Position numbers and translations under genes: made by a program. From an uncultured Chloroflexia bacterium (GTDB taxonomy: Bacteria > Chloroflexota > Limnocylindria > QHBO01): DNA of 64,000 nucleotides. Shown piece by piece: positions 9,052-55,306 of the stretch (its first letter is position 1; each line of letters begins with the position of its first letter). The stretch spans positions 1,914,964 through 1,978,963 of the forward strand of contig OY969424.1 of NCBI GenBank assembly GCA_963699235.1, read 5' to 3'. The notes under the pieces are model-generated. The model saw nothing but the letters and a program-made list of their open reading frames with translations. It did not search any database and was not told the origin of the DNA.

Positions 9052-11157
9052 ATGGCCTCGCCCGTCCGAATTCCCACCCTCGACCGCACCGACCTGCCCA
9101 ATCCTCCGGGCCTGGACGGCCTCCGTGAGCTGGCCGAGAACCTGTGGTGGACGTGGCATCCCGAGGCTCAGCGCCTCTTCTCGCGAGTCGATCCGCAGGC
9201 ATGGGCCCGCTCGCGCAATCCGATCCGCCTGCTCCGCCAGACCGATGCCGAGCGATGGGCGGCGCTGGCCGCCGACAGCCGCTTCGCGGCCGACACCGCG
9301 ACCGTGGTCGACCGCCTGCACGACGACATCGCCAATGGCGAGGATGGCCTGGGCAGCGACCTCGGCGGGCCGATCGCCTACCTCTGTGCGGAGTTCGCGC
9401 TCCACGAATCCCTGCCCGTTTACTCGGGTGGTCTGGGCGTGCTCGCCGGCGACCTCCTCAAGGCGGCGTCCGATGCCCGGCTGCCGATGGTCGGGGTGGG
9501 CCCGTTCTACCACCGCGGCTACTTCCGCCAGCGGATCGACGCCGATGGCCGGCAGGAGCACCTCGAGCCGGATGTCGATCCGGGAGACCTGCCGCTTCGC
9601 CGGGCGGCGGGCCCGGATGGCGGGGTGCTCGAGGTCGCGGTGGACCTGCCGGGCCGCTCGGTCAGGCTCACGGTCTGGGTCGCCCAGGTCGGACGGGTGC
9701 CGCTCCTCCTGCTCGACGCGGACGTCGAAGGCAACCAGCCCGACGATCGACGGATCACCGATCAGCTGTACGTCGCGGAGCGACGCACACGGCTCACCCA
9801 GGAAGTTTTGCTGGGCGTCGGCGCGGCCCGTGCCCTCGACGCGCTGGCGATCAGGCCCGCGGTCTGGCACCTCAACGAGGGCCACTCCGCGCTCGTCGTC
9901 CTGGAGCGCGCCCGCTTGGCGTGCGCCGCCGACCCGTCCCTCGGCGGCGCGGCGGCCCTCTTCCACGCGGGACGGGACATGGTCATGACCCTCCACACCC
10001 CGGTCCCGGCCGGAAACGAGTGCTACGACCCGGACCTCGCCGACGAGCTGCTGGCCCCGGCGGCCGCCGCCATCGACCTGTCCCGGGAGCGACTCCACGA
10101 GCTGGGGAGCGGGCCGGAAGGGACCAACGGTGTCTTCGACCTCACGGCCTTCGGGCTGCGGCAGGCGGCCGGCATCAACGCCGTCAGCCAGCTCCACGGA
10201 CGGACAGCGACGGCCACCTGGCGCGAGGCAATCGGTCGCGAGGTGGGCTCCGTCACCAACGGTGTCCATCGGGCGACCTGGCAGGCCCAGCCGATTCAGG
10301 CGGCGCTCCGCGCGGGCGGCGAGGCCACGGTCGGCGATCGCGAGCTGTGGGATGCCCATACCGAACAGAAACGGCAGATGATCGAGTTTCTGGGCGGGCG
10401 ACTGACCCGGCAGGCGCTCCGCCACGGCGTCGCGCCGGAGGCGGTGGGTGACCTCGCCGGGGCCCTCGACCCGCATGCCCTGACCATCGGCTTCGCGCGG
10501 CGCTTCGCAACGTACAAGCGGGCGGACCTCATCCTCCACGACCTCGCCCGCCTCGACCATCTCCTGGCCGACCCCGACCGACCGGTCCAGCTGATCTTCG
10601 CGGGCAAGGCCCACCCGGCCGATGACGGCGGCCAGGCGACACTCGGACGAGTGGTGGACGCGTCACGCCGTGTGGGGACGGCGGGCCGGATCTTCTTCAT
10701 CGAGAACTACGACCTGCGCGTGGCCCACTTCCTGGTGGCCGGCGTGGACGTCTGGCTGAACACGCCGCGGCGACCGCTCGAGGCTTCGGGAACGTCGGGC
10801 ATGAAGGCGGCGCTCAACGCCGTCCCGTCGGTGAGCATCCTCGACGGGTGGTGGGACGAGGCGTTCGACGGCACGAATGGCTGGGCGGTGGGCCGTCCAT
10901 CGACCGAGGACGGCGCGTCCGACGACGAGGACGCCGAGTCGCTCTATCGCGTCCTCGAGACCGAGGTCATTCCCGCCTTCTTCGGCCGCAATGACGACGG
11001 CCTGCCGCGGGCCTGGGTCGAGCGCATGCAGGGGGCGCTCCGAACGGGGCTGAACGAATTCACCGCGGACCGCGTCCTGCGCGACTACGTGGAGCAGCTG
11101 TACCGGCCGGTCGCCGCTGTCGGCGAAGTGGCAGCCAGGTCAGCTCGGTCAGCCTAG
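9052..11157 (+). CDS. glgP: alpha-glucan (maltodextrin/glycogen) phosphorylase, GT35 short form
   Basis: 701 aa with NLWWTWHPEA, IAYLCAEFALHESLPVYSGGLGVLAGD, and the GTSGMKAALN pyridoxal-phosphate Lys region. Confidence 0.9.
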   Translation: MASPVRIPTLDRTDLPNPPGLDGLRELAENLWWTWHPEAQRLFSRVDPQAWARSRNPIRLLRQTDAERWAALAADSRFAADTATVVDRLHDDIANGEDGLGSDLGGPIAYLCAEFALHESLPVYSGGLGVLAGDLLKAASDARLPMVGVGPFYHRGYFRQRIDADGRQEHLEPDVDPGDLPLRRAAGPDGGVLEVAVDLPGRSVRLTVWVAQVGRVPLLLLDADVEGNQPDDRRITDQLYVAERRTRLTQEVLLGVGAARALDALAIRPAVWHLNEGHSALVVLERARLACAADPSLGGAAALFHAGRDMVMTLHTPVPAGNECYDPDLADELLAPAAAAIDLSRERLHELGSGPEGTNGVFDLTAFGLRQAAGINAVSQLHGRTATATWREAIGREVGSVTNGVHRATWQAQPIQAALRAGGEATVGDRELWDAHTEQKRQMIEFLGGRLTRQALRHGVAPEAVGDLAGALDPHALTIGFARRFATYKRADLILHDLARLDHLLADPDRPVQLIFAGKAHPADDGGQATLGRVVDASRRVGTAGRIFFIENYDLRVAHFLVAGVDVWLNTPRRPLEASGTSGMKAALNAVPSVSILDGWWDEAFDGTNGWAVGRPSTEDGASDDEDAESLYRVLETEVIPAFFGRNDDGLPRAWVERMQGALRTGLNEFTADRVLRDYVEQLYRPVAAVGEVAARSARSA

Positions 11158-12470
11158 GGGAGATACCAGCGCGGGTTGGTCCAGACGCCGTGGTCGTTGA
11201 CCGCGAAGTGAAGATGGCATCCCGTGGACATGCCGGTCGTTCCCTCGTAGCCGATGGTGTCGCCCAGCGAGACTCCCTGTCCCGGCCACACCACGATCTG
11301 GGCCTTCAGGTGCCAGTACCAGGTCAGGACGCCGCCACCATGGTCGATCACGACGCCATAGCCGGTATCCCACGGCCACAGCGGCTGGCCGGAGGCCACC
11401 ACCACCCCGGTGCCCGCGGCCTTGATCCGGGTTCCGCACCCATTGGCCAGGTCGATGCCGCCGTGGAAGTGGGGGTAGTACGTGCCATTGAAGGTGTAGG
11501 GCGGCTCGAGCACGAAGTTCGTCGGGCCCCATTCCTGGGTGACGGTGAAGTAGTCCTCGGGCCAGCGGAAGCCGCGACTGGAGACCTGGACGTTCGATTC
11601 GGCGAGGAGCCGGTTGACGAGCGCGTTGGCGGCCGCCGCCGCCTCCTTGGTGGCGGTGATCTGACGCTCGACATCGCCTTGCGCGGCGAGTGCCGCATTG
11701 AGCGCCGCGGCCTGCTGCTGGCGCTTCTGCTCGGCCTGCACGACGAGCTCGCCGAGCCGCTTTTTCAGGGATGCGAGGTCGGCCTGGCGAGCGGCCAGGA
11801 TGGCCGCCTCCTCCTCCTCCACCTCGCGGGCCGCGGCAAGCTCCGCTCGACCCGCACGAAGAACGCCACGGTTCTCCTCGAGGGTGGCCCGCAGCTCGCG
11901 GATCTCGTCCGCGATCGCCGCGTCCTGCTCGGAGATGGTGAGCAGGTAGCCGACCTGGGTCGCGACCACTTCGAACGAGTCCGCCGCCAGGAGCACCTCG
12001 AGCAGCGACGTCTGGCTTCGCTCGTACGCGTCGCGGTAGTGGTCCTCGAGCAGCGCCTCGCGGGCCTCGAGCTCGCGGTTCTGGCGTTCGACCTCGACGG
12101 CGAGGGCCACGAGCATCTCGTCGAGGGATGCGATCCGGGCCCGAATCGCATCGAGGCGCGCCATGACCTCGATGATCTGGTTCTCGACCTGGACCAGGAG
12201 GCCGGCGACTCGCTCGTACTCGGCGCTGACGCTGGCGAGCTCGGCCTCGGCCGCATCCAGCCGAGCGTCGAGCGTGGCCGACAGGGACTTCAGGCCCGCC
12301 AGCTCACGGCGCTGGGAAGCGAGGGACTCCTGCAGGTCGCGCTGGTTGGCCTGGGCCTCGGCCAGGGGATCCCCGCCCCGGGCATGGTCGGCCGGCGTCG
12401 ACCCGAACATGGTCGAACCGACCACCACCAGAGCGACAAATGTGGCGGCCAGAGATGGCCGTCGTCTCAT
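11154..12470 (-). CDS. M23 family metallopeptidase with N-terminal signal and coiled-coil region
   Basis: 438 aa. It has a signal-like N-terminus and ~270 aa of coiled coil. The C-terminal LytM domain carries HFHGGIDLA ... GYEGTTGMSTGCHLHFAV. Confidence 0.9.
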   Translation of the reverse strand: MRRRPSLAATFVALVVVGSTMFGSTPADHARGGDPLAEAQANQRDLQESLASQRRELAGLKSLSATLDARLDAAEAELASVSAEYERVAGLLVQVENQIIEVMARLDAIRARIASLDEMLVALAVEVERQNRELEAREALLEDHYRDAYERSQTSLLEVLLAADSFEVVATQVGYLLTISEQDAAIADEIRELRATLEENRGVLRAGRAELAAAREVEEEEAAILAARQADLASLKKRLGELVVQAEQKRQQQAAALNAALAAQGDVERQITATKEAAAAANALVNRLLAESNVQVSSRGFRWPEDYFTVTQEWGPTNFVLEPPYTFNGTYYPHFHGGIDLANGCGTRIKAAGTGVVVASGQPLWPWDTGYGVVIDHGGGVLTWYWHLKAQIVVWPGQGVSLGDTIGYEGTTGMSTGCHLHFAVNDHGVWTNPRWYLP

Positions 12471-33037: not shown

Positions 33038-34233
33038 CCCACGACGGCCTCGTACACCGCCAGCGTCCGGGTGGCCACGCTCGCCCAGCCGAACTGCTCC
33101 TCGGCGCGTTCCCGACCGGCCTCTCCCATCGCCGCGCGCCGCGCCGGGTCCGCGACCAGGCCGTTGATGGCGGCCGCCAGGTCGAGCGCGACCTGGTCGG
33201 GATCGACGGCTCCGCCGTTCGCGTCCGCAATGTCGACCAGGAGGCCCGTGCGGCCGTGGTCCACCACCTCGGGGATTCCCCCGACGCGCGTCGCGACGAC
33301 TGGCACCCCGCAGGCCATGGCCTCCAGGTTGGTGATCCCGAACGGCTCGTAGGCCGAGGGGCAGACGAAGACTGCGGCGTGGGTGTACAGCTGGCGAACG
33401 GTCCGCCGATCGAGCATCTCCGGGATCCAGTGAATGGCCCGGGTGGGGGCCACCGTCCGCGCCGCCGTGAGGCCCGCCTCGACCTCGGCCGCGATCTCTT
33501 CGGTGTCTGGCTGGCCGGCTGCCAGCACGACCGCGATCCTCGGATCGAGGTGCGGGATGGCATCCACCAGGGTCGTGATCCCCTTCTGTCGCGTCACCCG
33601 GCCGACGAACAGGACATACGGCGAGCCTCGGTCGATCCCGAAGCGGCGGAGCGCGTCCCAGCCGGTGTCCGGCGCAAAGGCTGCGATGTCGATCCCGTTG
33701 TGGACGACGTGGATCCGCGAGGGATCGACCTCGAAATGCTCGAGGACGTCGCGGCGGGTCGCGTCGCTGACGGCGATCACCGCGTCGGCGCCCTCCAGGG
33801 CCTGCCGCTCGACCCAGGCCGAGGCGTCGTAGCCGCTGCCCAACTGCTCGCGCTTCCACGGCCGCAGCGGCTCGAGCGAGTGGACGGTGACCACCAGCGG
33901 GAGACCGTAGGCCTGACCGATGACCAGGCCGCCGAGGTGGGTGTACCAGGTGTGGCAGTGGACGAGGTCGGCGGCCGGCTGGTCCGCCGCCATCGCCAGG
34001 TTTCGGCTGAACGCGGCGAGGACCGGGCGCAGGAGCTCCGGCGCGCCGGCGACGTCGAGCGCGGCGGGGTAGCCGTGGACCCGCCAGCCTGGCTCGTCGT
34101 GTGCGTGGTCGCCGAAGGTCCGGATGTCGAGATCGGCCTGTCCGCGCAGCGCGTTCGCCAGCTCCCCGACGTGGACGCCAGCGCCGCCGTAGACCGACGG
34201 AGGGAACTCGTTGGTCAGCATCAGGACCCGCAC
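33034..34233 (-). CDS. GT4 glycosyltransferase of the actinobacterial GlgA/GlgM (alpha-maltose-1-phosphate / glycogen synthase) type
   Basis: 399 aa. It looks collinear with mycobacterial GlgM as recalled: [76 protein letters not shown]. Confidence 0.85.
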
Positions 34234-34281
34234 CGGGGCAGCCTACCCCGGACCACCCACCGCCGCCCCGATGGGACGCCG

Positions 34282-34314
34282 TTGACGCTCCACGGATACT
34301 CCCCCATAGTATCC
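34282..34314 (+). promoter_or_regulatory. candidate copA promoter with overlapping dyad operator
   Basis: TTGACG (34282..34287), a 17-nt spacer, then CATAGT. A 7-bp dyad GGATACT-CCCCCAT-AGTATCC (34294..34314) covers the -10 region. It lies 24 nt upstream of the copA ATG. Confidence 0.35.
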
Positions 34315-34337
34315 ATCGAGTTCGAGCCGCCACCCCG

Positions 34338-36667
34338 ATGACCCAGCATTCCCCCTCGCCAGCCACCACCGCGCCCGCGCGCCTCGAGATCGTCCTGCCT
34401 GTCGAAGGCATGACCTGCGCGAGCTGCGTGAACCGGATCGAGCGGTTCCTCCATCGCGCCGACGGGGTCGAGTCCGCCACCGTCAACCTCGCCACCGAGC
34501 AGGCAGCGGTGGTCTACGACCCGGCGCGTATCGATCGTACGGCGATCGTCGGTGCCATCGCCGCGGCCGGCTACGACGTCCGCACCGGAGCAGCCGATGC
34601 CCTGGCCCGCGCGCCCGCCGTCCCCGCCAACAACGACATCGAGGTTGCGCGCGCCGCAGAACGGCGAGCCCTGCTCCGTGACGGGGTAGCCGCCACCGGC
34701 ATCGGTCTGTTGATGATGCTGGCCACCTTCTGGCCCGGGGGGCTGCCCCTGACGTTGGAGCAGCTCAACCTCGCCCTCCTGGTACCGGCCACGGTCGTCC
34801 AGCTCGTGCTCGGGCGTCGGTTCACCGGGCGCGCCGTGCGCGGCCTGCGCCACGGGGACCTGACCATGGACACCCTCGTAGCGATGGGCACTTGGGCCGC
34901 CTACCTGTACTCGGTGGCGATCACGCTGGCCCCGGCGGCGGCGACGAGGGCCGGGCTGCCGCTCGAGACGTTCTTCGAGACCGCGGCCATCATCATCGGC
35001 TTCGTCCTCATCGGGCGCTGGCTGGAGGCCCGCGCCAAGAACGAGGCGTCCGGGGCGATCCGGGCCCTCCTCCGCCGTCTCCCGCCGACCGCCCGGGTGA
35101 TCCGCGATGGGGCCGAGGTGGCGGTGCCACTCGACGCGGTTCGGGTAGGTGACGTGGTCCGGGTCCGACCCGGGGAGCGGATCGCGGTCGATGGGCTCGT
35201 GGTGCACGGGTCGAGCGCGGTCGACGAGTCGATGCTGAGCGGCGAGTCGGTGCCGGTGGAGAAGGAACCGGAGGACCGGGTGACCGGCGCCACCCTGAAC
35301 CTGCAGGGGACGCTCACGGTCCGTACCGACCGGGTGGGATCCGACACGACCCTGGCCCAGATCGCTCGCCTGGTCGAGCAGGCCCAGGGATCGAAGGCAC
35401 CCATCCAGCACGTCGTGGACCGGGTCGTGGCCTGGTTCGTGCCCGTCGTGGCGCTCGTCGCGGCGGCCACGTTTGCGGCCTGGATGCTGCTCGGGCCCGA
35501 GCCTCGGCTGCCCCTGGCCCTCGCCAGTGCGATCGGGGTGCTCATCATCGCGTGCCCGTGTGCCATGGGCCTGGCGACACCGACAGCCCTCATCGTGAGC
35601 GCGGGCCGAGGGGCCGAGGCAGGGATCCTCCTCCGCGACGGCGCCGCCGTGGAGCGCGCCGCGACCGTCACCGACGTCGTCTTCGACAAGACCGGGACCC
35701 TGACGCGCGGCCGGCCGGAGGTGACGGCGGTGCTCCCCACCGACAGCGGTCCGGACGGGACCGAGCGCCTCGTGCGCGATGCCGCCGCCGCCGAGCGCGG
35801 GAGCGAGCACCCGTACGCCTCGGCCATCGTCCGCTGGGCGGGCGCCGGGGGTATCGACGTCGAGCCGGTGACCGTCAGCGGGTTCACCGCAACCGCCGGG
35901 GGCGGGGTGAAGGCCGCGGTCGATGGGCAGCAGCTGGTGGTGGGCAGCGAGCCGTTCCTCGCCGAATCGGGCATCCCCGGACCGCTGCCCGCCGATCTCG
36001 CCCGCGTCGCGGAGGAGGCTGCCGACGACGGGCAAACCGGGGTCTGGGTCGCGCGCGACGGCGAGGTGGCTGGCCTCATCCTCCTGGCCGATGGCCTGAA
36101 GCCATCGGCCATCGCGGCCGTCGCTCGGGTGAAACGCATCGGTCTCCAACCGTGGATGCTCAGTGGCGACCGGGAGGGGGTCGCGGGTGCGGTGGCCGCC
36201 CAGATCGGCATCCCACCCGAGCGGGTCCGTGCCGAGGTGGGACCGGACGGCAAGGCCGAGGTCGTCTCCACCCTCCAGGCCGGGGGGCGGACGGTGGCGA
36301 TGGTGGGCGACGGGCTGAACGACGGTCCGGCCCTGGCGCAGGCCGACCTCGGCATCGCGATCGGGACCGGGGCCGACGTCGCGATCGAGGCCAGCGACAT
36401 GACCCTGATCGGGGACGACCTGCGGGCGGTGGCCACCGGCGTCGCCCTGGCCCGGGCCACGATGCGGATCATCCGCCAGAACCTGGTCTGGGCCTTCGGC
36501 TACAACGTCGTCCTCATCCCGGTCGCGGCGGGCATCCTGTACCCGTTCACCGGGTGGACTCTGAGCCCGGCGCTCGCGGCGGGGGCGATGGCGCTCTCGA
36601 GCGTGAGTGTCGTGACCAACTCCCTGCGCCTGCGCCGCTTCCGAGCACGCCCGACGCGGGCCTCTGA
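34338..36667 (+). CDS. copA: copper-translocating P1B-type ATPase (3-prime end undefined: no in-frame stop)
   Basis: Contains HMA domain GMTCASC, the CPC motif ([11 protein letters not shown]), DKTGTLT and [11 protein letters not shown]; the last TM helix ends ..[12 protein letters not shown] near 36641. The frame then stays open through the YHS gene and into the esterase ORF (track ORF 34101..37949). The end given here is the nearest stop (TGA 36665..36667), which is out of frame. Confidence 0.85.
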
Positions 36668-36690
36668 CGAAACAGGCAGGAGGACAGCCG

Positions 36691-36885
36691 ATGTCGATGG
36701 TGACCGAATCCGAGCCCCGCGACCCGGTCTGCGGCATGGTGGTGGACCCCCTCCGGGCCGAGGCGAACGGGCTGGTCGAGGAGCACGCCGGTGTCCGCTA
36801 CATCTTCTGCGGCCGGGGGTGCCTCCTCGACTTCCGGGACGACCCGGACCACTACCTCGACCCCGGCTACGTCCCGCACATGTAG
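36691..36885 (+). CDS. YHS/TRASH-domain metal-binding protein
   Basis: 64 aa. AGGAGG lies 7 nt before the ATG. Contains [10 protein letters not shown]...[23 protein letters not shown], the YHS-domain consensus. Confidence 0.8.
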
Positions 36886-36896
36886 GCTGCGTCCCG

Positions 36897-37949
36897 ATGG
36901 ACGCCGAGCAGCGCGTGGGACCGCCGTGGGGCCACGACTGGGCGGGCCGCTTCCACGAGCACGTGCTCGACTCCGAGGTCCTGGTCGGGAACCCGTTGGG
37001 CGACCCGACCCGCCGCCCGGTCTACGTCTACACCCCGCCCGCCTATGAGACCGAGCCGGATCGCCGGTTCGCGACCGTCGTCGTCATCCAGGGGCTCACC
37101 GGCCAGGTGGACATGTGGCGCAACCGGAAAGCCTTCAAGCGCACCGTGCCCGAGACGGTGGACCTGGCCTTCGCGACACCGGGCCAGGAGCCCGCGCTGG
37201 TCGTCTACGTGGACTGCTGGACGAGCCTGGGCGGCAGCCAGTTCCTCGACTCGCCCGGGACGGGCCGGTACCTCACCTACCTGTGTGACGAGGTCATCCC
37301 ATGGGTGGATGCGACGTACCGGACGCTCCCCGACGCCGCCCATCGAGCGGTGGCCGGCAAGTCGTCCGGCGGCTACGGGGCCATGGTCCTGCCCATGCTC
37401 CGCCCCGACCGATTCGGGGCGCTGGCGACCCATGCCGGTGATGCCCTGTTCGAGGCCAGCTACCTGCCCGACATCCGGGGTGCGGTGCGCGCCCTGCGAG
37501 ATCGGTACGACGGCTCGTACGACCAGTTCTGGTCCACGTTCCGGTCCCGGACCGGGCCGGTCCCGAGCTCTGACCACGACCTGCTGAACATGTGGTGCAT
37601 GGCGGCCTGTTACTCGACCGATCCCGACGGAACCGTCCGCCTGCCGTTCGAGACGACCACCGGCCGGCTCATCCCCGAGGTCTGGGATCGGTGGCTGGCC
37701 CTCGACCCGGTGCGGATGGTCGCCGGACACGCGGAGGCGCTCCGCGGCCTGCACGGGATCTGGATCGACGCCGGCACGAGCGACGAGTTCTACCTCGACC
37801 TGGGAGCGGTGGCGTTCCGCGACGAGCTGACGGCGATCGGCGTCTCCGAGCCGGTCGTCCACTTCGAGCTGGTGGAAGGCACCCACTCGGATCTCGAGCA
37901 CCTCTACCCGACCGCCATCGCCTGGCTGGCGGAGCGCCTGGCAGGGTAG
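36897..37949 (+). CDS. esterase family protein (enterochelin-esterase-like alpha/beta hydrolase)
   Basis: ATG at 36897 gives 350 aa with [12 protein letters not shown], the nucleophile elbow [10 protein letters not shown], and [11 protein letters not shown]. Confidence 0.8.
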
Positions 37950-50085: not shown

Positions 50086-53000
50086 TCAGCGGTACAGGTC
50101 CTGCCAGTCGATCTCCCAATCGGGGCGAGAGGAATCGGTGACGATCCGGTCGACCACGGGCATCTCGACCACGGGCACCTCGGAGGAGTACCACCGCGCA
50201 TCCGCGACGGCTGCGACCCGGGCCGGCCGGTGGCCGGATCCCTGCCTGAGGTGGATGACGTACATCATCAGAAGGCCGGCAACGGTCGTGACCAGGCTCG
50301 CGAGGAACAGTGGTGTGGTCCCGAGCTCCTCGGTCAGGGCGGTGTCCGGCACCCCGTCGCCATCGGGGGCATCACCCACCTCGCCGATCGCGAACTCGCT
50401 GAAGGCGGTCAGTCCGGCGGCCGTGGCCGTCGTCGGAGTCGATGGAGCGGCCGCCGGGTAGGTCCAGCCCGCGTTCCACTTGGCGACGACGAATGCCGAC
50501 GAATCCGCGCCCGGGTCGACATCGGCCGGAGCCCAGGTGAACTGCGCGTCGGCGGTGTCGAACACGACCCCGCCGCTCACGAGGCTCCACCAGCGGTTGA
50601 CGTCGGCGGACGGGTTCAGGATCGAGCTCGCGATGTCCGGGTGTTCGCCAGCGGTCGTGGTCACCGTGACCGTGCCGTCGAGGGTGACCATCCCGAAGGT
50701 CACCGAGACCGGGGCGTACGTCGTGGCGTCGCCGATCTCATAGGTCACGACCACACCCGGTCCCGACACCACCGGCTTCTCCAGCGCGCCGTCCACGTGA
50801 CCGGACGTTCGCGAGACGACACCCGCCAGGTCCATGGTCAGGACCCAGGGACGGGATCGGAGGATCCCATCCGACAGGTCGAGGCCCAGGCCGATCCGCA
50901 TCGGTCCGTTCAACGCCGCGCCGTTGGGGTTGGCCAGGCTGAGGTTGGCAAGGTCGGTGAGGCTGGCGGGGATCACGATGTTGGCGCCCGTCCCGAACAC
51001 CTCCAGCGACGACGCCGGGTTGCCCGTCAGGTTGGTCGGGCTGCCGGCGATCGGGTTGGCGATCGCGAGCAGCTGGCCGCCGAAGTCGGTCGGGCCGCCG
51101 AGGGTCAGGGTTCCTGTGACCCGGACCCCGGTGTTCAGGGTGGCTCCCGCCGGATTGCTCACCGTCAGGTCGAACAGACCGATGACGGCGGCTGCGCCGC
51201 CGAGCGTCTGCGGCGCCGTCCCGTCGAGGACCAGGGCTCCGGGGCCGGGGGAGAACGCACCGTCTATTGTCACGTCGCCGGCGACCGCGGCGACCCATCC
51301 CGCCGCGTCCAGGGTGCCACCGGAGACCCACAGGTCGCCGTTGACGTCGAGGTCGTCGAGGAGCGTCGCCGTCCCGCCGGTGACTCGGACGTCGGAGAAG
51401 GCCATGCCCGCGGCGTTGATGGTCGTACCGGTGTCGAACACGACCAGCGACGTTCCGGCATCCACCGTCCCGTCCAGCCAGGTCCAGGACGAGGTGAGGA
51501 GCCGAATCGTCCCCGCCAGGAACAGCGTGCCGGAGGGCTTGTCGATGACGACGTTGGCCACGTCGCCGGTGGTCGTGGTCGCGCTTCCGGTGAACGTTTG
51601 CGTACCCGTTCCCGCGATGAGGAGGGTGCCGGTCTCGCCGTCGAATGTGTCGAGCAGCGTGATGTCGCCCAGTGCCGCCATCGTCCCGCCCTCGAGGTCG
51701 CCGTTGATCAACGTCAGGGGACCGCTCACGCTGACGGTGTCGCCGACGGCGACCACCACGGCCCCTGAGCGCAGCTCGACGGCGTCGAGGGTGTGGGTGC
51801 CCGAGATGGTCAGGTTGCCGGTGAAGACGACCGTGCTGCCGGCCGTGACCAGGCCACCACTGAGGTAGGTCCAGTTCCGGCCGGTGCGGAGGGTGCCGGT
51901 CAGGGTCAGGCTGGCGGCGGGCTTATCGAAGGTGACGTTGGGCAGGCTGCCGGTGGTCGAGTTGTGGAAGCCAGTGAAGGTCTGCGGGCCGGGGCCGTTG
52001 ACCAGGACCGTCGCCGTCCCGCCGCCGGTGAACCCGACCCGGGCGACGAGGTCGCCCTCGACGGCCAGGGTGCCGGTGTTGAGGGCCCCACTGAACAGCT
52101 CGAGGCTGCCGGCCGCGGTCAGGGTCGTACCGGCGGCCAGTGTCACCGTGCCCCGGACCTCGACGTTGTGCAGGCTGTGCGAACCGGTGATCGTGCCGCC
52201 GGTGAACACGACCGTGCTGCCGGTCGTGACCAGGCCACCGGGGGCCGCGGTGTAGGTCCAGTTGCGGCCGGTGCGGAGGGTGTCGGTGATGGTCAGCACG
52301 CCGGAGGGCTTGCTGATCTCGATGTTGGGCAGGCTGCCGGCGACGGTGGTGTGGTCACCGTCAAAGACCTGGACACCGGGGCCGTTGAACAGGAGAAGGG
52401 CGGTCCCGCCGCCGGTGAAGCCGATACGGGCGTGGACGTCGCCCTGGGCAGCCAACGTGCCGGTGGCAGCCACCTGGTTGAGCGTCCCGCTGAACAGCTC
52501 GGTGGCACCGGCCGCGGTCAGGGTCGTGCCGGCAGCCAGCGTGACCGTGCCCCGCACCTGGACCGCGTCGAGGGTGTGCGAACCGGTGATCGTGCCGCCG
52601 GTGAAGACGAGGGTGTGGCCCGTCACGGTGAGACCGCCCGCTGCGGTATAGGTCCAGTTGCGGCCGGTGCGGAGCGTGTCGGTCAGCGTCAGGGTCCCGC
52701 TTGGCTTGTTGATCTCGACGTTCGGCAGGCTGCCGGCGACGGTGGTGTGGTCGCCGTCGAACGTCTGGGCCCCGGAGCCGTTCAACAGGAAAAGGGCGGT
52801 GCCGCCGCCGGTGAAGCCGATCCGGGCGTGGACGTCGCCCTGGGCGGCCAGGGTGCCGGTGGCAGCCACCTGGTTGAGGGTCCCGCTGAACAGCTCGGTG
52901 GTGCCGGTCGCGGTCAGGGTCGTACCGGCGGCCAGTGTCACCGTGCCCCGGATCTCGACGTTGTTCAGGGTCTGCGAGCCGGTGACCGTGCCCCCGGCGA

Positions 53001-55110
53001 AGACCATCGTGTGGCCGGTGGTGGTGAACGTGCCGGGGACCGCGGTGTAGGTCCAGTTGTGGGAGGTGCGGAGGGTGCCGGCCAGGGTCAGGTTGCCGGC
53101 CGGCTTGTTGATGACCACGTTCGGCATGTCGCCGCTGCCGACCGCGTGGCTGGCAGTGATCGTCTGGTTGCCGGCCCCGTTCAGGAGGAGCGTGCCCGAG
53201 CTGCTGGTCGCCGTGAAGCCGGCCGCCACGGTGACGTCGCCCTGAGCGGCGAGGGTGCCGGTCGCGACCGCGCCGGTGACCAGGGCCACGGATCCGGTGG
53301 CGGTGACCGTCGTCCCGGCCGCGATGGTGATCGTGCCGCCCCGGATCTCGACGTTGTTCAGGGTCTGCGAGCCGGTGACCGTGCCCCCGGCGAAGACCAT
53401 CGTGTGGCCGGTGGTGGTGAACGTGCCGGGGACCGCGGTGTAGGTCCAGTTGTGGGAGGTGCGGAGGGTGCCGGCCAGGGTCAGGTTGCCGGCCGGCTTG
53501 TTGATGACCACGTTCGGCATGTCGCCGCTGCCGACCGCGTGGCTGGCAGTGATCGTCTGGTTGCCGGCCCCGTTCAGGAGGAGCGTGCCCGAGCTGCTGG
53601 TCGCCGTGAAGCCGGCCGCCACGGTGACGTCGCCCTGAGCGGCGAGGGTGCCGGTCGCGACCGCGCCGGTGACCAGGGCCACGGATCCGGTGGCGGTGAC
53701 CGTCGTCCCGGCCGCGATGGTGATCGTGCCGCCCCGGATCTCGACGTTGTTCAGGGTCTGCGAGCCGGTGACCGTGCCCCCGGCGAAGACCATCGTGTGG
53801 CCGGTGGTGGTGAACGTGCCGGGGACCGCGGTGTAGGTCCAGTTGTGGGAGGTGCGGAGGGTGCCGGCCAGGGTCAGGTTGCCGGCCGGCTTGTTGATGA
53901 CCACGTTCGGCATGTCGCCGCTGCCGACCGCGTGGCTGGCAGTGATCGTCTGGTTGCCGGCCCCGTTCAGGAGGAGCGTGCCCGAGCTGCTGGTCGCCGT
54001 GAAGCCGGCCGCCACGGTGACGTCGCCCTGAGCGGCGAGGGTGCCGGTCGCGACCGCGCCGGTGACCAGGGCCACGGATCCGGTGGCGGTGACCGTCGTC
54101 CCGGCCGCGATGGTGATCGTGCCGCCCCGGATCTCGACGTTGTTCAGGGTCTGCGAGCCGGTGACCGTGCCCCCGGCGAAGACCATCGTGTGGCCGGTGG
54201 TGGTGAACGTGCCGGGGACCGCGGTGTAGGTCCAGTTGTGGGAGGTGCGGAGGGTGCCGGCCAGGGTCAGGTTGCCGGCCGGCTTGTTGATGACCACGTT
54301 CGGCATGTCGCCGCTGCCGACCGCGTGGCTGGCAGTGATCGTCTGGTTGCCGGCCCCGTTCAGGAGGAGCGTGCCCGAGCTGCTGGTCGCCGTGAAGCCG
54401 GCCGCCACGGTGACGTCGCCCTGAGCGGCGAGGGTGCCGGTCGCGACCGCGCCGCCCGTGAGGCTCAGCGTCCCGACGATGTCCAGCGTGTCTCCCGCCG
54501 CGACCGTCTTGGTGCCGGACAGGAAGGCAACGTTGTTCAGGGTGAGGCTCGTCGGGACATCGATCGTGGCGTTGCTGGTGGAGAAGGTCACGGTTCCCAG
54601 GTTGTGGGCGAACGAGCCGCCGGAGACGGTGAACGCCCCGTTCACGGTCAGGGTGGCGGCGGTGCTCGTGAACGAGCCGCCGCTGAGGGTGAACTGGTCG
54701 CTGACCGTGATGGCCGCCGTGCCACCGACAAAGGTGCCGCCGGCCTGGATGAAGTCGGCCACGCCCCCGGTCACGGTCAGCGTCGTGCCGAGCGCCTGGG
54801 TGACCACGCCGGCGTAGGTGGCCGCGATGGTCACGCCCTGGACGGTCGCGTTCACATTGATGGTGACCGGCTCGGCGCTGGTCGCGTCGAACACGACGGT
54901 GTCGCCTGCGACAGGGGCGACATCGCCCACCCAGTTCAGCGGATCGGTCCAGTTCTGGGTCGCCAGTGAACCGCCGTCCCACGTCCGTGTCGCGCCGGCG
55001 ACGGGCGCGGGAACGCCCACCACGACCAGGATCGTGACAACGATCAAGGTCGGAGTGAAGAGCAGGCGAGTGGCGCCGATGGCGGTGCGCAGGGATGCAG
55101 CGAGGCTCAA
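50086..55110 (-). CDS. giant repeat-containing cell-surface protein (beta-helix-like modules, N-terminal signal, C-terminal TM anchor)
   Basis: Continuous 1674-aa ORF with TTG start. It has a signal-like N-terminus, 8 tandem ~131-aa modules, a C-terminal TM helix and a charged tail. The Gly/Thr/Val/Ala-rich beta-strand periodicity is coding-like; the overlapping 1058-aa and 957-aa ORFs are Arg/Gly/Pro-rich shadows. Confidence 0.85.
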   Translation of the reverse strand: MSLAASLRTAIGATRLLFTPTLIVVTILVVVGVPAPVAGATRTWDGGSLATQNWTDPLNWVGDVAPVAGDTVVFDATSAEPVTINVNATVQGVTIAATYAGVVTQALGTTLTVTGGVADFIQAGGTFVGGTAAITVSDQFTLSGGSFTSTAATLTVNGAFTVSGGSFAHNLGTVTFSTSNATIDVPTSLTLNNVAFLSGTKTVAAGDTLDIVGTLSLTGGAVATGTLAAQGDVTVAAGFTATSSSGTLLLNGAGNQTITASHAVGSGDMPNVVINKPAGNLTLAGTLRTSHNWTYTAVPGTFTTTGHTMVFAGGTVTGSQTLNNVEIRGGTITIAAGTTVTATGSVALVTGAVATGTLAAQGDVTVAAGFTATSSSGTLLLNGAGNQTITASHAVGSGDMPNVVINKPAGNLTLAGTLRTSHNWTYTAVPGTFTTTGHTMVFAGGTVTGSQTLNNVEIRGGTITIAAGTTVTATGSVALVTGAVATGTLAAQGDVTVAAGFTATSSSGTLLLNGAGNQTITASHAVGSGDMPNVVINKPAGNLTLAGTLRTSHNWTYTAVPGTFTTTGHTMVFAGGTVTGSQTLNNVEIRGGTITIAAGTTVTATGSVALVTGAVATGTLAAQGDVTVAAGFTATSSSGTLLLNGAGNQTITASHAVGSGDMPNVVINKPAGNLTLAGTLRTSHNWTYTAVPGTFTTTGHTMVFAGGTVTGSQTLNNVEIRGTVTLAAGTTLTATGTTELFSGTLNQVAATGTLAAQGDVHARIGFTGGGTALFLLNGSGAQTFDGDHTTVAGSLPNVEINKPSGTLTLTDTLRTGRNWTYTAAGGLTVTGHTLVFTGGTITGSHTLDAVQVRGTVTLAAGTTLTAAGATELFSGTLNQVAATGTLAAQGDVHARIGFTGGGTALLLFNGPGVQVFDGDHTTVAGSLPNIEISKPSGVLTITDTLRTGRNWTYTAAPGGLVTTGSTVVFTGGTITGSHSLHNVEVRGTVTLAAGTTLTAAGSLELFSGALNTGTLAVEGDLVARVGFTGGGTATVLVNGPGPQTFTGFHNSTTGSLPNVTFDKPAASLTLTGTLRTGRNWTYLSGGLVTAGSTVVFTGNLTISGTHTLDAVELRSGAVVVAVGDTVSVSGPLTLINGDLEGGTMAALGDITLLDTFDGETGTLLIAGTGTQTFTGSATTTTGDVANVVIDKPSGTLFLAGTIRLLTSSWTWLDGTVDAGTSLVVFDTGTTINAAGMAFSDVRVTGGTATLLDDLDVNGDLWVSGGTLDAAGWVAAVAGDVTIDGAFSPGPGALVLDGTAPQTLGGAAAVIGLFDLTVSNPAGATLNTGVRVTGTLTLGGPTDFGGQLLAIANPIAGSPTNLTGNPASSLEVFGTGANIVIPASLTDLANLSLANPNGAALNGPMRIGLGLDLSDGILRSRPWVLTMDLAGVVSRTSGHVDGALEKPVVSGPGVVVTYEIGDATTYAPVSVTFGMVTLDGTVTVTTTAGEHPDIASSILNPSADVNRWWSLVSGGVVFDTADAQFTWAPADVDPGADSSAFVVAKWNAGWTYPAAAPSTPTTATAAGLTAFSEFAIGEVGDAPDGDGVPDTALTEELGTTPLFLASLVTTVAGLLMMYVIHLRQGSGHRPARVAAVADARWYSSEVPVVEMPVVDRIVTDSSRPDWEIDWQDLYR
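51298..54460 (-). repeat. full module array of the giant ORF (8 units of 130-132 codons; 4 identical, 4 diverged)
   Basis: Protein-level units start at about aa 223, 354, 485, 616 (type A), 750, 882 (type B), 1012 (C) and 1142 (D). All share GTLAAQGDV-like, NV.I.KP.G.LTL and NWTY motifs. The boundaries are approximate. Confidence 0.75.
52945..54454 (-). repeat. perfect tandem repeat, 393-bp unit x 3.84 copies, inside the giant ORF
   Basis: Line-by-line comparison shows identical sequence at a 393-nt period, for example starts at 53057, 53450, 53843 and 54236. Identity begins at 52945 and ends at 54454. 393 nt equals 131 codons, so the frame is kept. Confidence 0.95.
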
Positions 55111-55306
55111 TCGACGCGGCGCTTGGATGACTATGGATCCACTCCAAATGGCCCCCGAGGGCGGATCCTCCTCCTTCGTCTCCGTGACGCGAGCCCTGCG
55201 TAGGCGACGACGATCCTGTAAACGAGGATATCAAACGCCGTTCGGCGCGATGTCGGAATCACCACTTCAGCGGCCGGATTCCGGTACCCCCTCGATGAAC
55301 CGCGCG

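Follow-up and report, generated by a model that had tools for sequence, protein, structure and literature searches.

A predicted beta-solenoid surface protein with a length-variable module array in an uncultured Candidatus Limnocylindria bacterium

What kind of protein is encoded by a very long, repeat-bearing open reading frame (ORF) that stands alone among ordinary metabolic genes? We addressed this question for a 64,000-nt stretch of DNA (hereafter the window) from an uncultured Chloroflexia bacterium (GCA_963699235.1, contig OY969424.1, positions 1,914,964–1,978,963 of the forward strand), in which such an ORF lies at 50086–55110. An earlier description made from the letters alone (the sequence-only reading) had seen in it a single minus-strand ORF of 1674 aa for a membrane-anchored surface protein. 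We think it probable, with some reserve, that the gene encodes a Sec-exported, C-terminally anchored beta-solenoid rod, that is, a Periscope-type fibrillar surface protein of the class Candidatus (Ca.) Limnocylindria. Ca. Limnocylindria, the former Ellin6529, are Chloroflexota that are widespread in soil and fresh water; to our knowledge, they have no well-studied cultured representatives and nothing is known of their cell surface.

The ORF at 50086–55110 is a genuine gene. The window has a G+C content of ~70% and long open frames on every strand; in the frame of this ORF, G+C is 0.93 at third codon positions (GC3) and 0.58 at second positions, comparable to the Pfam-supported genes of the window, and the long antisense ORFs over the gene are high-GC shadow frames. 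The assignment follows from the GC3 value, from more than 60 homologs with the full architecture of the query, and from the presence of the gene, as a single copy in the same syntenic slot, in ~12–13 species-level Limnocylindria genomes. The earlier description was borne out with regard to the single minus-strand ORF, its own 196-bp upstream region and its housekeeping-type neighbors, which are unrelated enzymes and transporters. Considering the conserved leader in the upstream spacer (described below) and a downstream gene that is convergent with it, monocistronic transcription is plausible; sigma-70 promoter and terminator scans at the locus were uninformative. The predicted protein has a mass of ~154 kDa and is acidic, Cys-free and Thr-rich (17.6% Thr), with few charged residues in its ectodomain and with 86 T-x-T motifs versus ~52 expected from composition. 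Its two strongest hydrophobic segments are at aa 16–40 and aa 1601–1621.

The larger part of the protein is a module array. A hidden Markov model (HMM) of the module gave eight near-full matches, which upheld the earlier count of eight tandem modules of ~131 aa. The claim that four of these modules are identical had to be revised: the block of 100% identity comprises 3.84 units of 393 bp, so that modules 1–3 do not differ from one another and module 4 matches them at 92% (identity of the DNA ends at aa 722). Identity between modules 5 and 6 is 84%, module 7 shares 47–61% identity with the others and module 8 shares 36–41%; Tandem Repeats Finder (TRF) also reported 396-bp units at 75–81% identity. 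The closest match in the protein collection (P0002, 65% identical over 83% of the query; no exact copy was present) is encoded on a 1.36-Mb contig of an “uncultured Chloroflexia” metagenome-assembled genome (MAG). The gene order there is the same as in the window, namely MFS-MMPL-DUF1003-CoA-transferase, the surface-protein gene, and then a convergent LLM oxidoreductase-deaminase-DUF2461 group. This syntenic ortholog has seven modules, of 138-aa and 128-aa types, versus eight here. Its array (L001 10735–12994) is built from two homogenized unit types of 414 bp (~138 aa) and 384 bp (128 aa, 3.1 copies at 100% identity), and therefore unit length as well as copy number differs between lineages. 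The two membrane-proximal modules are positional orthologs, with 78% and 85% identity between the two genomes. The distal modules, in contrast, are 100% identical within each genome and only 65–68% identical between genomes, and because of this difference the pattern is the signature of arrays that would have been amplified or homogenized recently, by recombination, and independently in each lineage. Across the family, the module HMM detected about 3–13 modules per protein; a comparison of copy number among orthologs, which the sequence-only reading had suggested, thus gave eight here, seven in the syntenic ortholog and this wider family range.

Structure models were generated by AlphaFold2 with family alignments for two segments. 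The cap plus module model (aa 41–355) had a predicted local distance difference test score (pLDDT) of 93.8 and a predicted template modeling score (pTM) of 0.89, and the model of aa 884–1674 had a pLDDT of 85.7 and a pTM of 0.74, with residues to ~aa 1580 all well predicted. Both models are all-beta, with ~16 strands per module. In the cap and in the stretch after the repeats, short strands recur every 6–7 aa with a second period of 19–20 aa, like a three-strand-per-turn solenoid. Because pTM is high across three modules and the C-terminal domains, the modules may stack into one rigid body; at ~54 turns, as counted from DSSP assignments, and 0.48 nm per turn, the solenoid would be ~26 nm long, or ~30 nm with the C-terminal domain. 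The weak Foldseek neighbors of the models are almost all right-handed beta-helices or solenoids, including tailspikes, Ag43, Hbp, EspP, Hap, EtpA, HxuA, HMW1, PL6 lyases and MpAFP, as well as adenovirus LH3, the Limosilactobacillus reuteri serine-rich repeat protein (SRRP) and RsaA. Matches to viral predicted structures were borderline only (best E 7.9e-4; template modeling score (TM-score) ≤0.33), and a PDB sequence search with the whole protein found no match. Profile matches in the PDB (“coat protein”, E 0.0016, and titin for the C-terminal domain) were judged to be compositional or generic beta-sandwich similarity and were discarded. The beta-solenoid fold is therefore a prediction with qualitative rather than statistical support, drawn from the DSSP patterns and the kind of weak neighbors found. 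The earlier term “beta-helix-like” stands with regard to strand periodicity and neighbors and lacks a significant fold match. Neither profile nor structure searches placed the modules in a characterized family, which leaves intact the earlier view of them as uncharacterized.

The region between the array and the membrane had been described as ~330 aa of non-repeat sequence. It resolves into three parts: a solenoid continuation of ~115 aa, a beta-sandwich of ~195 aa and an acidic linker of 20 aa (Table 1). The continuation is 65% identical to the ortholog and is conserved in 67 homologs. The beta-sandwich is conserved in 62–66 homologs and has invariant EIGD..Y.P, GEHP, NRWW and FSEFA.GE motifs; it matched no Pfam family. 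Weak profile matches to titin Ig/Fn3 were observed for this domain, together with a weak local Foldseek match to the FIIND (ZU5-UPA) of NLRP1/CARD8 (7crw_A, E 0.024, prob 0.99, 146 columns). The latter raised the idea of juxtamembrane autoproteolysis, which was rejected, since the conserved [FL]S[ED]F motif is part of the last strand of the domain, not placed at a ZU5-UPA junction, and its Phe is not conserved.

At the N-terminus, the query has VAG|AT directly before an RTWDGG motif that is invariant in homologs, where it is preceded by VDA|AT, VEA|AT or VRG|AV; the A-x-A-type site of the homologs is placed exactly two residues ahead of RTWDGG. The N-terminal segment therefore looks like a cleavable Sec signal peptide rather than an anchor. 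Of the earlier label “signal/anchor”, the signal part is retained and the anchor part is not, as the cleavage-type site is kept before RTWDGG. Export by the twin-arginine (Tat) route, prompted by an upstream RR pair, was rejected: the pair is 15 aa away from the h-region, on its N-terminal side, and precedes the start codon. The TW-x-GG..NW..NW opening noted earlier is present in the cap and is invariant in 25 family members at W44, G46, W54, N59, W60, P66 and D70. The cap is 79% identical to the ortholog, versus 65% for the whole protein.

These parts suggest the following mechanism. Cleavage of the signal peptide would let the TWDGG cap form the distal tip. The cap, the eight super-repeats (about five solenoid turns each) and the post-repeat turns would stack into one continuous rod of roughly 25–30 nm, with the beta-sandwich domain placed next to the wall or membrane. 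Rod length would be set by module number, and module number would change via homologous recombination between the 393-bp DNA units, whose 100% identity is the observed pattern. The anchor would derive from an LPDTA-type cell-wall sorting signal (motif, transmembrane (TM) helix and basic residues), represented in this sub-clade by VPDTA and a tail. The conserved tip would be carried across the wall and past it, where it would serve adhesion or the spacing or shielding of the cell surface; from the architecture alone we infer this kind of function.

Table 1. Coordinates of the features of the surface-protein locus, given as positions in the window.
Feature	Position	Strand	Support or details
ORF of the surface protein	50086..55110	-	1674 aa, TTG start
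Conserved 5' leader, ~130 nt	55104..55235	-	3' end overlaps the start codon; five orthologous loci
Predicted signal peptide, aa 1-40 (n-region R8, R15; h-region LLFTPTLIVVTILVVVGV; c-region PAPVAG(A))	54991..55110	-	strongest hydrophobic segment
N-terminal cap, aa 41-224, predicted distal rod tip	54439..54990	-	opens with TWDGG..W..NW..P..D..F motif
Eight tandem ~131-aa predicted beta-solenoid super-repeat modules, aa 225-1270	51301..54438	-	module HMM, TRF arrays, AlphaFold models
393-bp unit x 3.84 at 100% identity, aa 220-722	52945..54454	-	TRF score 3020, 100% matches, 0 indels
Predicted post-repeat solenoid continuation, aa 1271-1385	50956..51300	-	pLDDT >90, strands every 6-7 aa, ~19 aa per coil
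Predicted membrane-proximal beta-sandwich, aa 1386-1580	50371..50955	-	long-strand all-beta, pLDDT about 85-97
Acidic linker, aa 1581-1600, including VPDTA (aa 1587-1591, 50338-50352)	50311..50370	-	aligned with LPDTA/LPNTA/LPDTS of relatives
Single C-terminal TM helix LFLASLVTTVAGLLMMYVIHL, aa 1601-1621	50248..50310	-	hydrophobicity; helix in AlphaFold model
Predicted cytoplasmic tail, 53 aa (1622-1674), ends RPDWEIDWQDLYR	50089..50247	-	end motif 50089-50118, aa 1665-1674

Analysis of the C-terminus agreed with the earlier description of one TM helix and a charged tail, predicted to be cytoplasmic. The helix is flanked by acidic residues before it and by the basic RQGSGHRPAR after it, which fits the positive-inside rule. 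The statement that no LPXTG element was recognized, on the other hand, had overlooked VPDTA, which aligns with LPDTA/LPNTA in relatives. Most Chloroflexota members of the family end with an acidic or Pro/Thr linker, a pentapeptide of the form [LVM]P[DNS]T[AGST], 6–20 residues, a TM helix and an Arg-rich tail. LPDTA is the commonest pentapeptide, and LPDTS, LPNTA, LPNTT, LADTT and VPDTS (L011) also occur. Because the pentapeptide is kept whether the preceding domain is a beta-sandwich or a DUF11 repeat, it appears to be part of a tripartite signal. In Bacillus subtilis, the class D sortase YhcS anchors YfkN and YhcR, whose signals are LPDTA and LPDTS, and in B. anthracis the class D motif is LPNTA; all three were established by experiment as sortase D signals (PMC3222306). 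The LPDTA-type signals of the family suggest class D-like sortase anchoring in Chloroflexota. Besides, a PcsB-like ORF (coiled-coil plus M23 peptidase, a cell-division-type peptidoglycan hydrolase) is located in the window at 11154–12470 (-); it implies a murein wall, which bears on the feasibility of sortase-type wall anchoring.

The tail of the query is 53 aa long and net acidic, unlike the short positive tail of sortase substrates, whereas most relatives do have a short Arg-rich tail. In the ortholog, the final 13 aa are the same. The end motif W-[EQ]-x-x-W-Q-[DE]-x-[FY]-R-stop was found in eight distinct sequences (the window, P0002, P0010, P0021, L006, L027, L082 and L114), in 8/8 cases preceded by [LV]P[DN]TA and a TM helix; in the query ~45 residues are added after the signal. 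A search with the tail peptide in a set of 5.8 billion proteins returned nothing beyond the family, and a degenerate DNA pattern of the end motif matched 51 places in the metagenome collection, 49 of them chance matches in tiny ORFs and 2 in family members. The predicted cytoplasmic tail is a conserved, family-specific feature. Regarding the fate of the protein, we hold the chances to be about even that it is kept as a type I membrane protein. Cleavage and wall linkage by a sortase, which would leave a remnant of TM helix plus tail, is a tentative option. It is rather doubtful that, in one Limnocylindria sub-clade, the ancestral sortase-type signal was converted into a permanent TM link with a conserved cytoplasmic tail. 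If such a permanent link exists, the tail could dock a cytoplasmic partner and the 25–30-nm rod would be a mechanical or signaling connection across the envelope; alternatively, a tail left after cleavage could stay as a “C-peptide” that reports surface-protein processing to the cell. Reporting of the C-peptide type is known for streptococcal adhesin sorting signals.

Upstream of the gene, the 196-bp spacer is 86% identical to that of the ortholog, versus 77–82% for the flanking genes, and contains a leader conserved in five loci (window 55104–55235 (-), L001 9942–10073, L003 1706–1845, L004 8513–8653 and L056 4496–4634). Its consensus reads TTTGATATCCT..AGGATCG..CGCAGGG..GGAGGAGGATCC..CCCC/GGGG..GGAGTGGATCCATA..CATCC..[T/C]TGAGCC. 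The predicted fold has three hairpins, among them a CCCC:GGGG stem enclosed within a GGAUCC:GGAUCC stem; the consensus fold contains 42 pairs, 6 of them compensatory, in a five-locus sample that is too small for a covariation test. No Rfam model matched the leader, and a covariance-model search found no instance beyond the five seed loci. The start codon of the surface-protein gene is uncertain: the aligned codon (window 55108–55110) is TTG in the window and L056 and CTG in L001, L003 and L004. The ATG further upstream that opens the gene call of the ortholog (MEEDP...) was rejected as a conserved start, as it is AAG in the window (55175–55177) and is followed by an in-frame TAA in L003 and L004. 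In L003, this ATG and the TAA could form a tiny upstream ORF (MEEDPRPPGG*). If one of the two roles considered for the tail is real, it would, together with the structured leader, make the locus a core envelope organelle under regulation, in an abundant lineage of uncultured soil bacteria.

In the neighborhood of the gene, the flanking MMPL, CoA-transferase, LLM, deaminase and DUF2461 genes recur beside family members in 8–13 loci, and the surface-protein gene is a vertically inherited resident, not an island. In a scan of species-representative genomes, the bulk of the family belonged to Chloroflexota (Ca. Limnocylindria and others) and to Dormibacterota, with remoter members in Bacteroidota, Omnitrophota, Planctomycetota and Patescibacteria; members occur in temperate-soil MAGs. 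A module profile built from six distinct modules and searched against 1.84 billion representative proteins matched 944 clusters at E≤1e-3, 590 at ≤1e-10 and 228 at ≤1e-30, with up to 17 full-length copies per protein. One apparent member with 68 matching stretches, P0240, was rejected, as its score was an accumulation of many ~8-bit matches on a Cys-containing repeat. Since P0240 is spurious, the count of 944 is inflated, and the stricter counts of 228–590 are the trustworthy ones. P0240 itself (5486 aa) is an unrelated giant with ~68 near-identical 52-aa Cys-containing repeats (…NDGCTADQILNLTVTPKPSTVTTTETICSGESYTWLANGTVYTTDQAGVTIS…). Remoter homologs join the modules to other ends: among 120 homologs listed, 39 carry DUF11 repeats with LPxT-TM-Arg-rich ends and 25 a C-terminal sorting domain of the type IX secretion system (T9SS); these different endings on the same modules imply different surface-delivery routes in different phyla.

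In Pfam and NCBIfam searches with the whole protein, no model reached its curated cut-off for the module, the cap or the C-terminal domain, and weak Bactofilin, FapA, GspD-N0 and Amnionless matches below those cut-offs were not taken as memberships. The predicted ~131-aa solenoid module defines an unannotated repeat family. The opening had been likened to that of proteins with autotransporter-associated beta-strand repeats (PATR); this resemblance was not supported, as PF12951 (PATR) had no Pfam match even at E up to 10 and no NCBIfam match, and the sole weak match in that region was Amnionless (PF14828, E 0.04). The Pfam scan of the surface protein also detected no S-layer homology (SLH) domain, no RTX or other Ca-binding repeats, no Beta_helix, Pectate_lyase or glycoside-hydrolase family and no autotransporter beta-barrel, the C-terminus consisting of a beta-sandwich, a single TM helix and a disordered tail. 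With regard to SLH and barrel elements this agrees with the sequence-only reading.

Several observations weigh against a Periscope-type rod with an adhesive or shielding tip. Adhesin genes tend to be accessory; a core gene with one copy in a fixed syntenic position is less typical of them. The difference in repeat number was seen between species-level relatives (77–82% DNA identity), not within one population; a metagenome scan with the C-terminal protein region found no closer relative. Foldseek comparison of both models with the PDB gave no significant analog (best E 0.012 and 0.12, TM-score ≤0.3). Fibrillar adhesins combine a repeat-domain stalk, a recognized adhesive domain and an anchor (Monzon, Lafita and Bateman 2021, PMC8286594); the query has a stalk and an anchor-like C-terminus, and no known adhesive or ligand-binding domain was recognized by Pfam/NCBIfam in the cap or the C-terminal domain. 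The curated anchor models TIGR01167 and PF00746 had no match in the query, and relatives scored below cut-off (13.8 bits versus 15.9 for TIGR01167; 14.2 bits versus 20 for PF00746). No sortase was detected by Pfam scans of the window or, by the TLxTC signature and a phmmer search with SrtA, within 10 kb of family genes (1.42 Mb scanned).

A different role would also fit part of the evidence. Core-gene behavior, with one copy in the same slot across ~12–13 species-level genomes, would be expected if the product were an abundant, membrane-anchored main structural protein of the envelope (S-layer-like or a stalk layer) rather than an adhesin. Long 5' leaders are typical of S-layer mRNAs, and the conserved long leader with its predicted hairpins agrees with this, as do the acidic, Cys-free, Thr-rich composition, the C-terminal TM helix anchor and the presence of RsaA among the weak fold neighbors. 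However, the RsaA match is not significant (E 0.04–0.2, TM-score 0.16), and the Pfam scan found neither SLH nor another S-layer anchoring domain. Variable identical repeats and rod geometry are atypical of lattice-forming proteins, and many orthologs add DUF11 repeats and sortase-type ends, as in wall-anchored fibrils. We therefore regard an S-layer-like role as unlikely. The possibility that nothing functional is encoded, the ORF being a chance high-GC open frame or an artefact of repeat assembly, has some points in its favor: long spurious ORFs arise in high-GC genomes, identical repeats are error-prone in assemblies, and here the start codon is non-canonical and uncertain. It is effectively refuted by the GC3 value and frame-specific codon bias, by intact homologs in dozens of genomes with region-specific conservation, by confident structure predictions, and by a syntenic ortholog from an independent assembly that also holds identical units; an assembly issue could at most affect exactly how many copies of the identical unit there are.

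Two further alternatives arise from the fold neighbors. A beta-helical enzyme displayed on the surface (a polysaccharide lyase, a hydrolase or a depolymerase, comparable to pectate-lyase-fold proteins and phage tailspikes), with polysaccharide of the environment or of the cell wall as its substrate, is suggested by PL6 lyases, xylogalacturonan hydrolase, alginate lyases/epimerases and many tailspike depolymerases among the weak neighbors, but all such matches are non-significant (E ≥0.01, TM-score ≤0.3) and the polysaccharide-degrading families named above are missing from the Pfam results. Interchangeable, partly identical modules in variable number are incompatible with a unique active-site groove, and the ectodomain is poor in charged residues, so that an enzymatic role is very unlikely. 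We give even less credence to an ice-, mineral- or crystal-binding protein with Thr arrays, like the beta-helical antifreeze and ice-adhesin proteins. The best PDB neighbor of the cap-plus-module model is indeed the Ca2+-dependent beta-helical antifreeze domain of the Marinomonas ice adhesin (3p4g), and both the Thr content and the excess of T-x-T motifs point the same way. This match, however, is not significant (E 0.12, TM-score 0.27), RTX or Ca-binding repeats were not detected, T-x-T enrichment is common in beta-rich repeat proteins, and the family occurs in temperate-soil MAGs.

If the Periscope-type rod is the right explanation, the gene would represent a conserved, syntenically fixed, very large surface protein of Ca. 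Limnocylindria, and the 131-aa solenoid repeat, with hundreds of clusters in several phyla, could become a new domain model. Current understanding is not overturned, as giant repetitive surface proteins with unassigned roles are common. The novel details are modest: a family-specific cytoplasmic tail on a sortase-type signal, and a conserved leader.

Elsewhere in the window, positions 34101–37949 (+) hold a single 1282-aa ORF with HMA, P-type ATPase, HAD-hydrolase and putative esterase (aa 971–1242) domains. The orthologous contig L001 has three genes instead, one each for the ATPase, a YHS-domain protein and the esterase. The long ORF could be a gene fusion or reflect a lost stop codon or a sequencing error.

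The protein can be compared with several known systems. Archaeal S-layer glycoproteins (for example, of Haloferax) have a C-terminal TM anchor or sorting signal. The query is likewise acidic, Thr-rich and predicted to be Sec-exported, with a single C-terminal TM helix preceded by a short conserved motif; it differs in being bacterial, in its predicted solenoid rod with variable repeats and in having no match of the PGF-CTERM type. Type V and two-partner secretion (TPS) beta-helix passengers and PATR proteins (Ag43, Hap, Hbp, EtpA, HMW1 and FHA) share a long surface beta-helix with the predicted rod, and the W-rich opening and LTL.G...(N)WTYT-like strands of the query are PATR-like. In addition, TPS and PATR domains occur together with the module in the family member P0116, and some homologs are labeled “fibronectin-binding autotransporter adhesin” by the Joint Genome Institute (JGI). 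In contrast to these systems, the query has no beta-barrel translocator or TPS domain and ends in a TM helix, and PF12951 does not match it. The SRRP of L. reuteri offers a monoderm-type parallel, since its binding region (5nxk) is an exposed right-handed beta-solenoid on a C-terminally anchored fibril; 5nxk is among the fold neighbors, but not significantly (E 1.6, TM-score 0.22). The SRRP solenoid is a single binding region between Ser-rich repeats, whereas in the query the solenoid itself would be the repeated stalk. The class D sortase substrates of Bacillus (YhcR/YfkN and BasH/BasI; PMC3222306) have the same LPDTA/LPDTS/LPNTA pentapeptides as relatives of the query, followed by a TM helix and an Arg-rich tail, but the ectodomains are unrelated (the Bacillus proteins are nucleotidases) and the query has VPDTA and a 53-aa tail.

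The closest correspondence is with Periscope Proteins (Whelan et al. 2021; PMC9704523; SasG, Rib, Sgo0707 and ShdA). Such proteins are rods formed by one chain and attached to the cell surface. Their tandem repeats are highly identical and can grow or shrink in number, the functional end is typically N-terminal and the tether to the wall C-terminal, and beta-helical PATR arrays (ShdA) count as an accepted example (PMC9704523). The predicted N-terminal export signal, the predicted rod-like stalk of identical repeats and the putative C-terminal tether are shared, ShdA providing the beta-helical precedent. DNA-level repeat identity that permits recombinational change of copy number is shared as well, and coding-level identical tandem repeats are present both here (393 bp × 3.84) and in the ortholog (384 bp × 3.1), at 100% in each case. 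In these respects the predicted surface protein fits the class definition, with repeat variation known here from species-level relatives, not close strains. Differences were found in the repeat, a new 131-aa solenoid super-repeat without a Pfam model; in the missing recognized functional head domain; in length variation that is known between species, not strains; in the tether, where a TM helix and a conserved, predicted cytoplasmic tail take the place of a canonical LPXTG signal; and in the host, an uncultured soil Chloroflexota, not a pathogen. The protein would thus be a new, unannotated representative of a known group, the fibrillar or Periscope surface proteins whose beta-solenoid stalks vary in length, and it would carry the Periscope idea, in which recombination tunes the length of the stalk, from pathogens over to environmental bacteria of the monoderm type.

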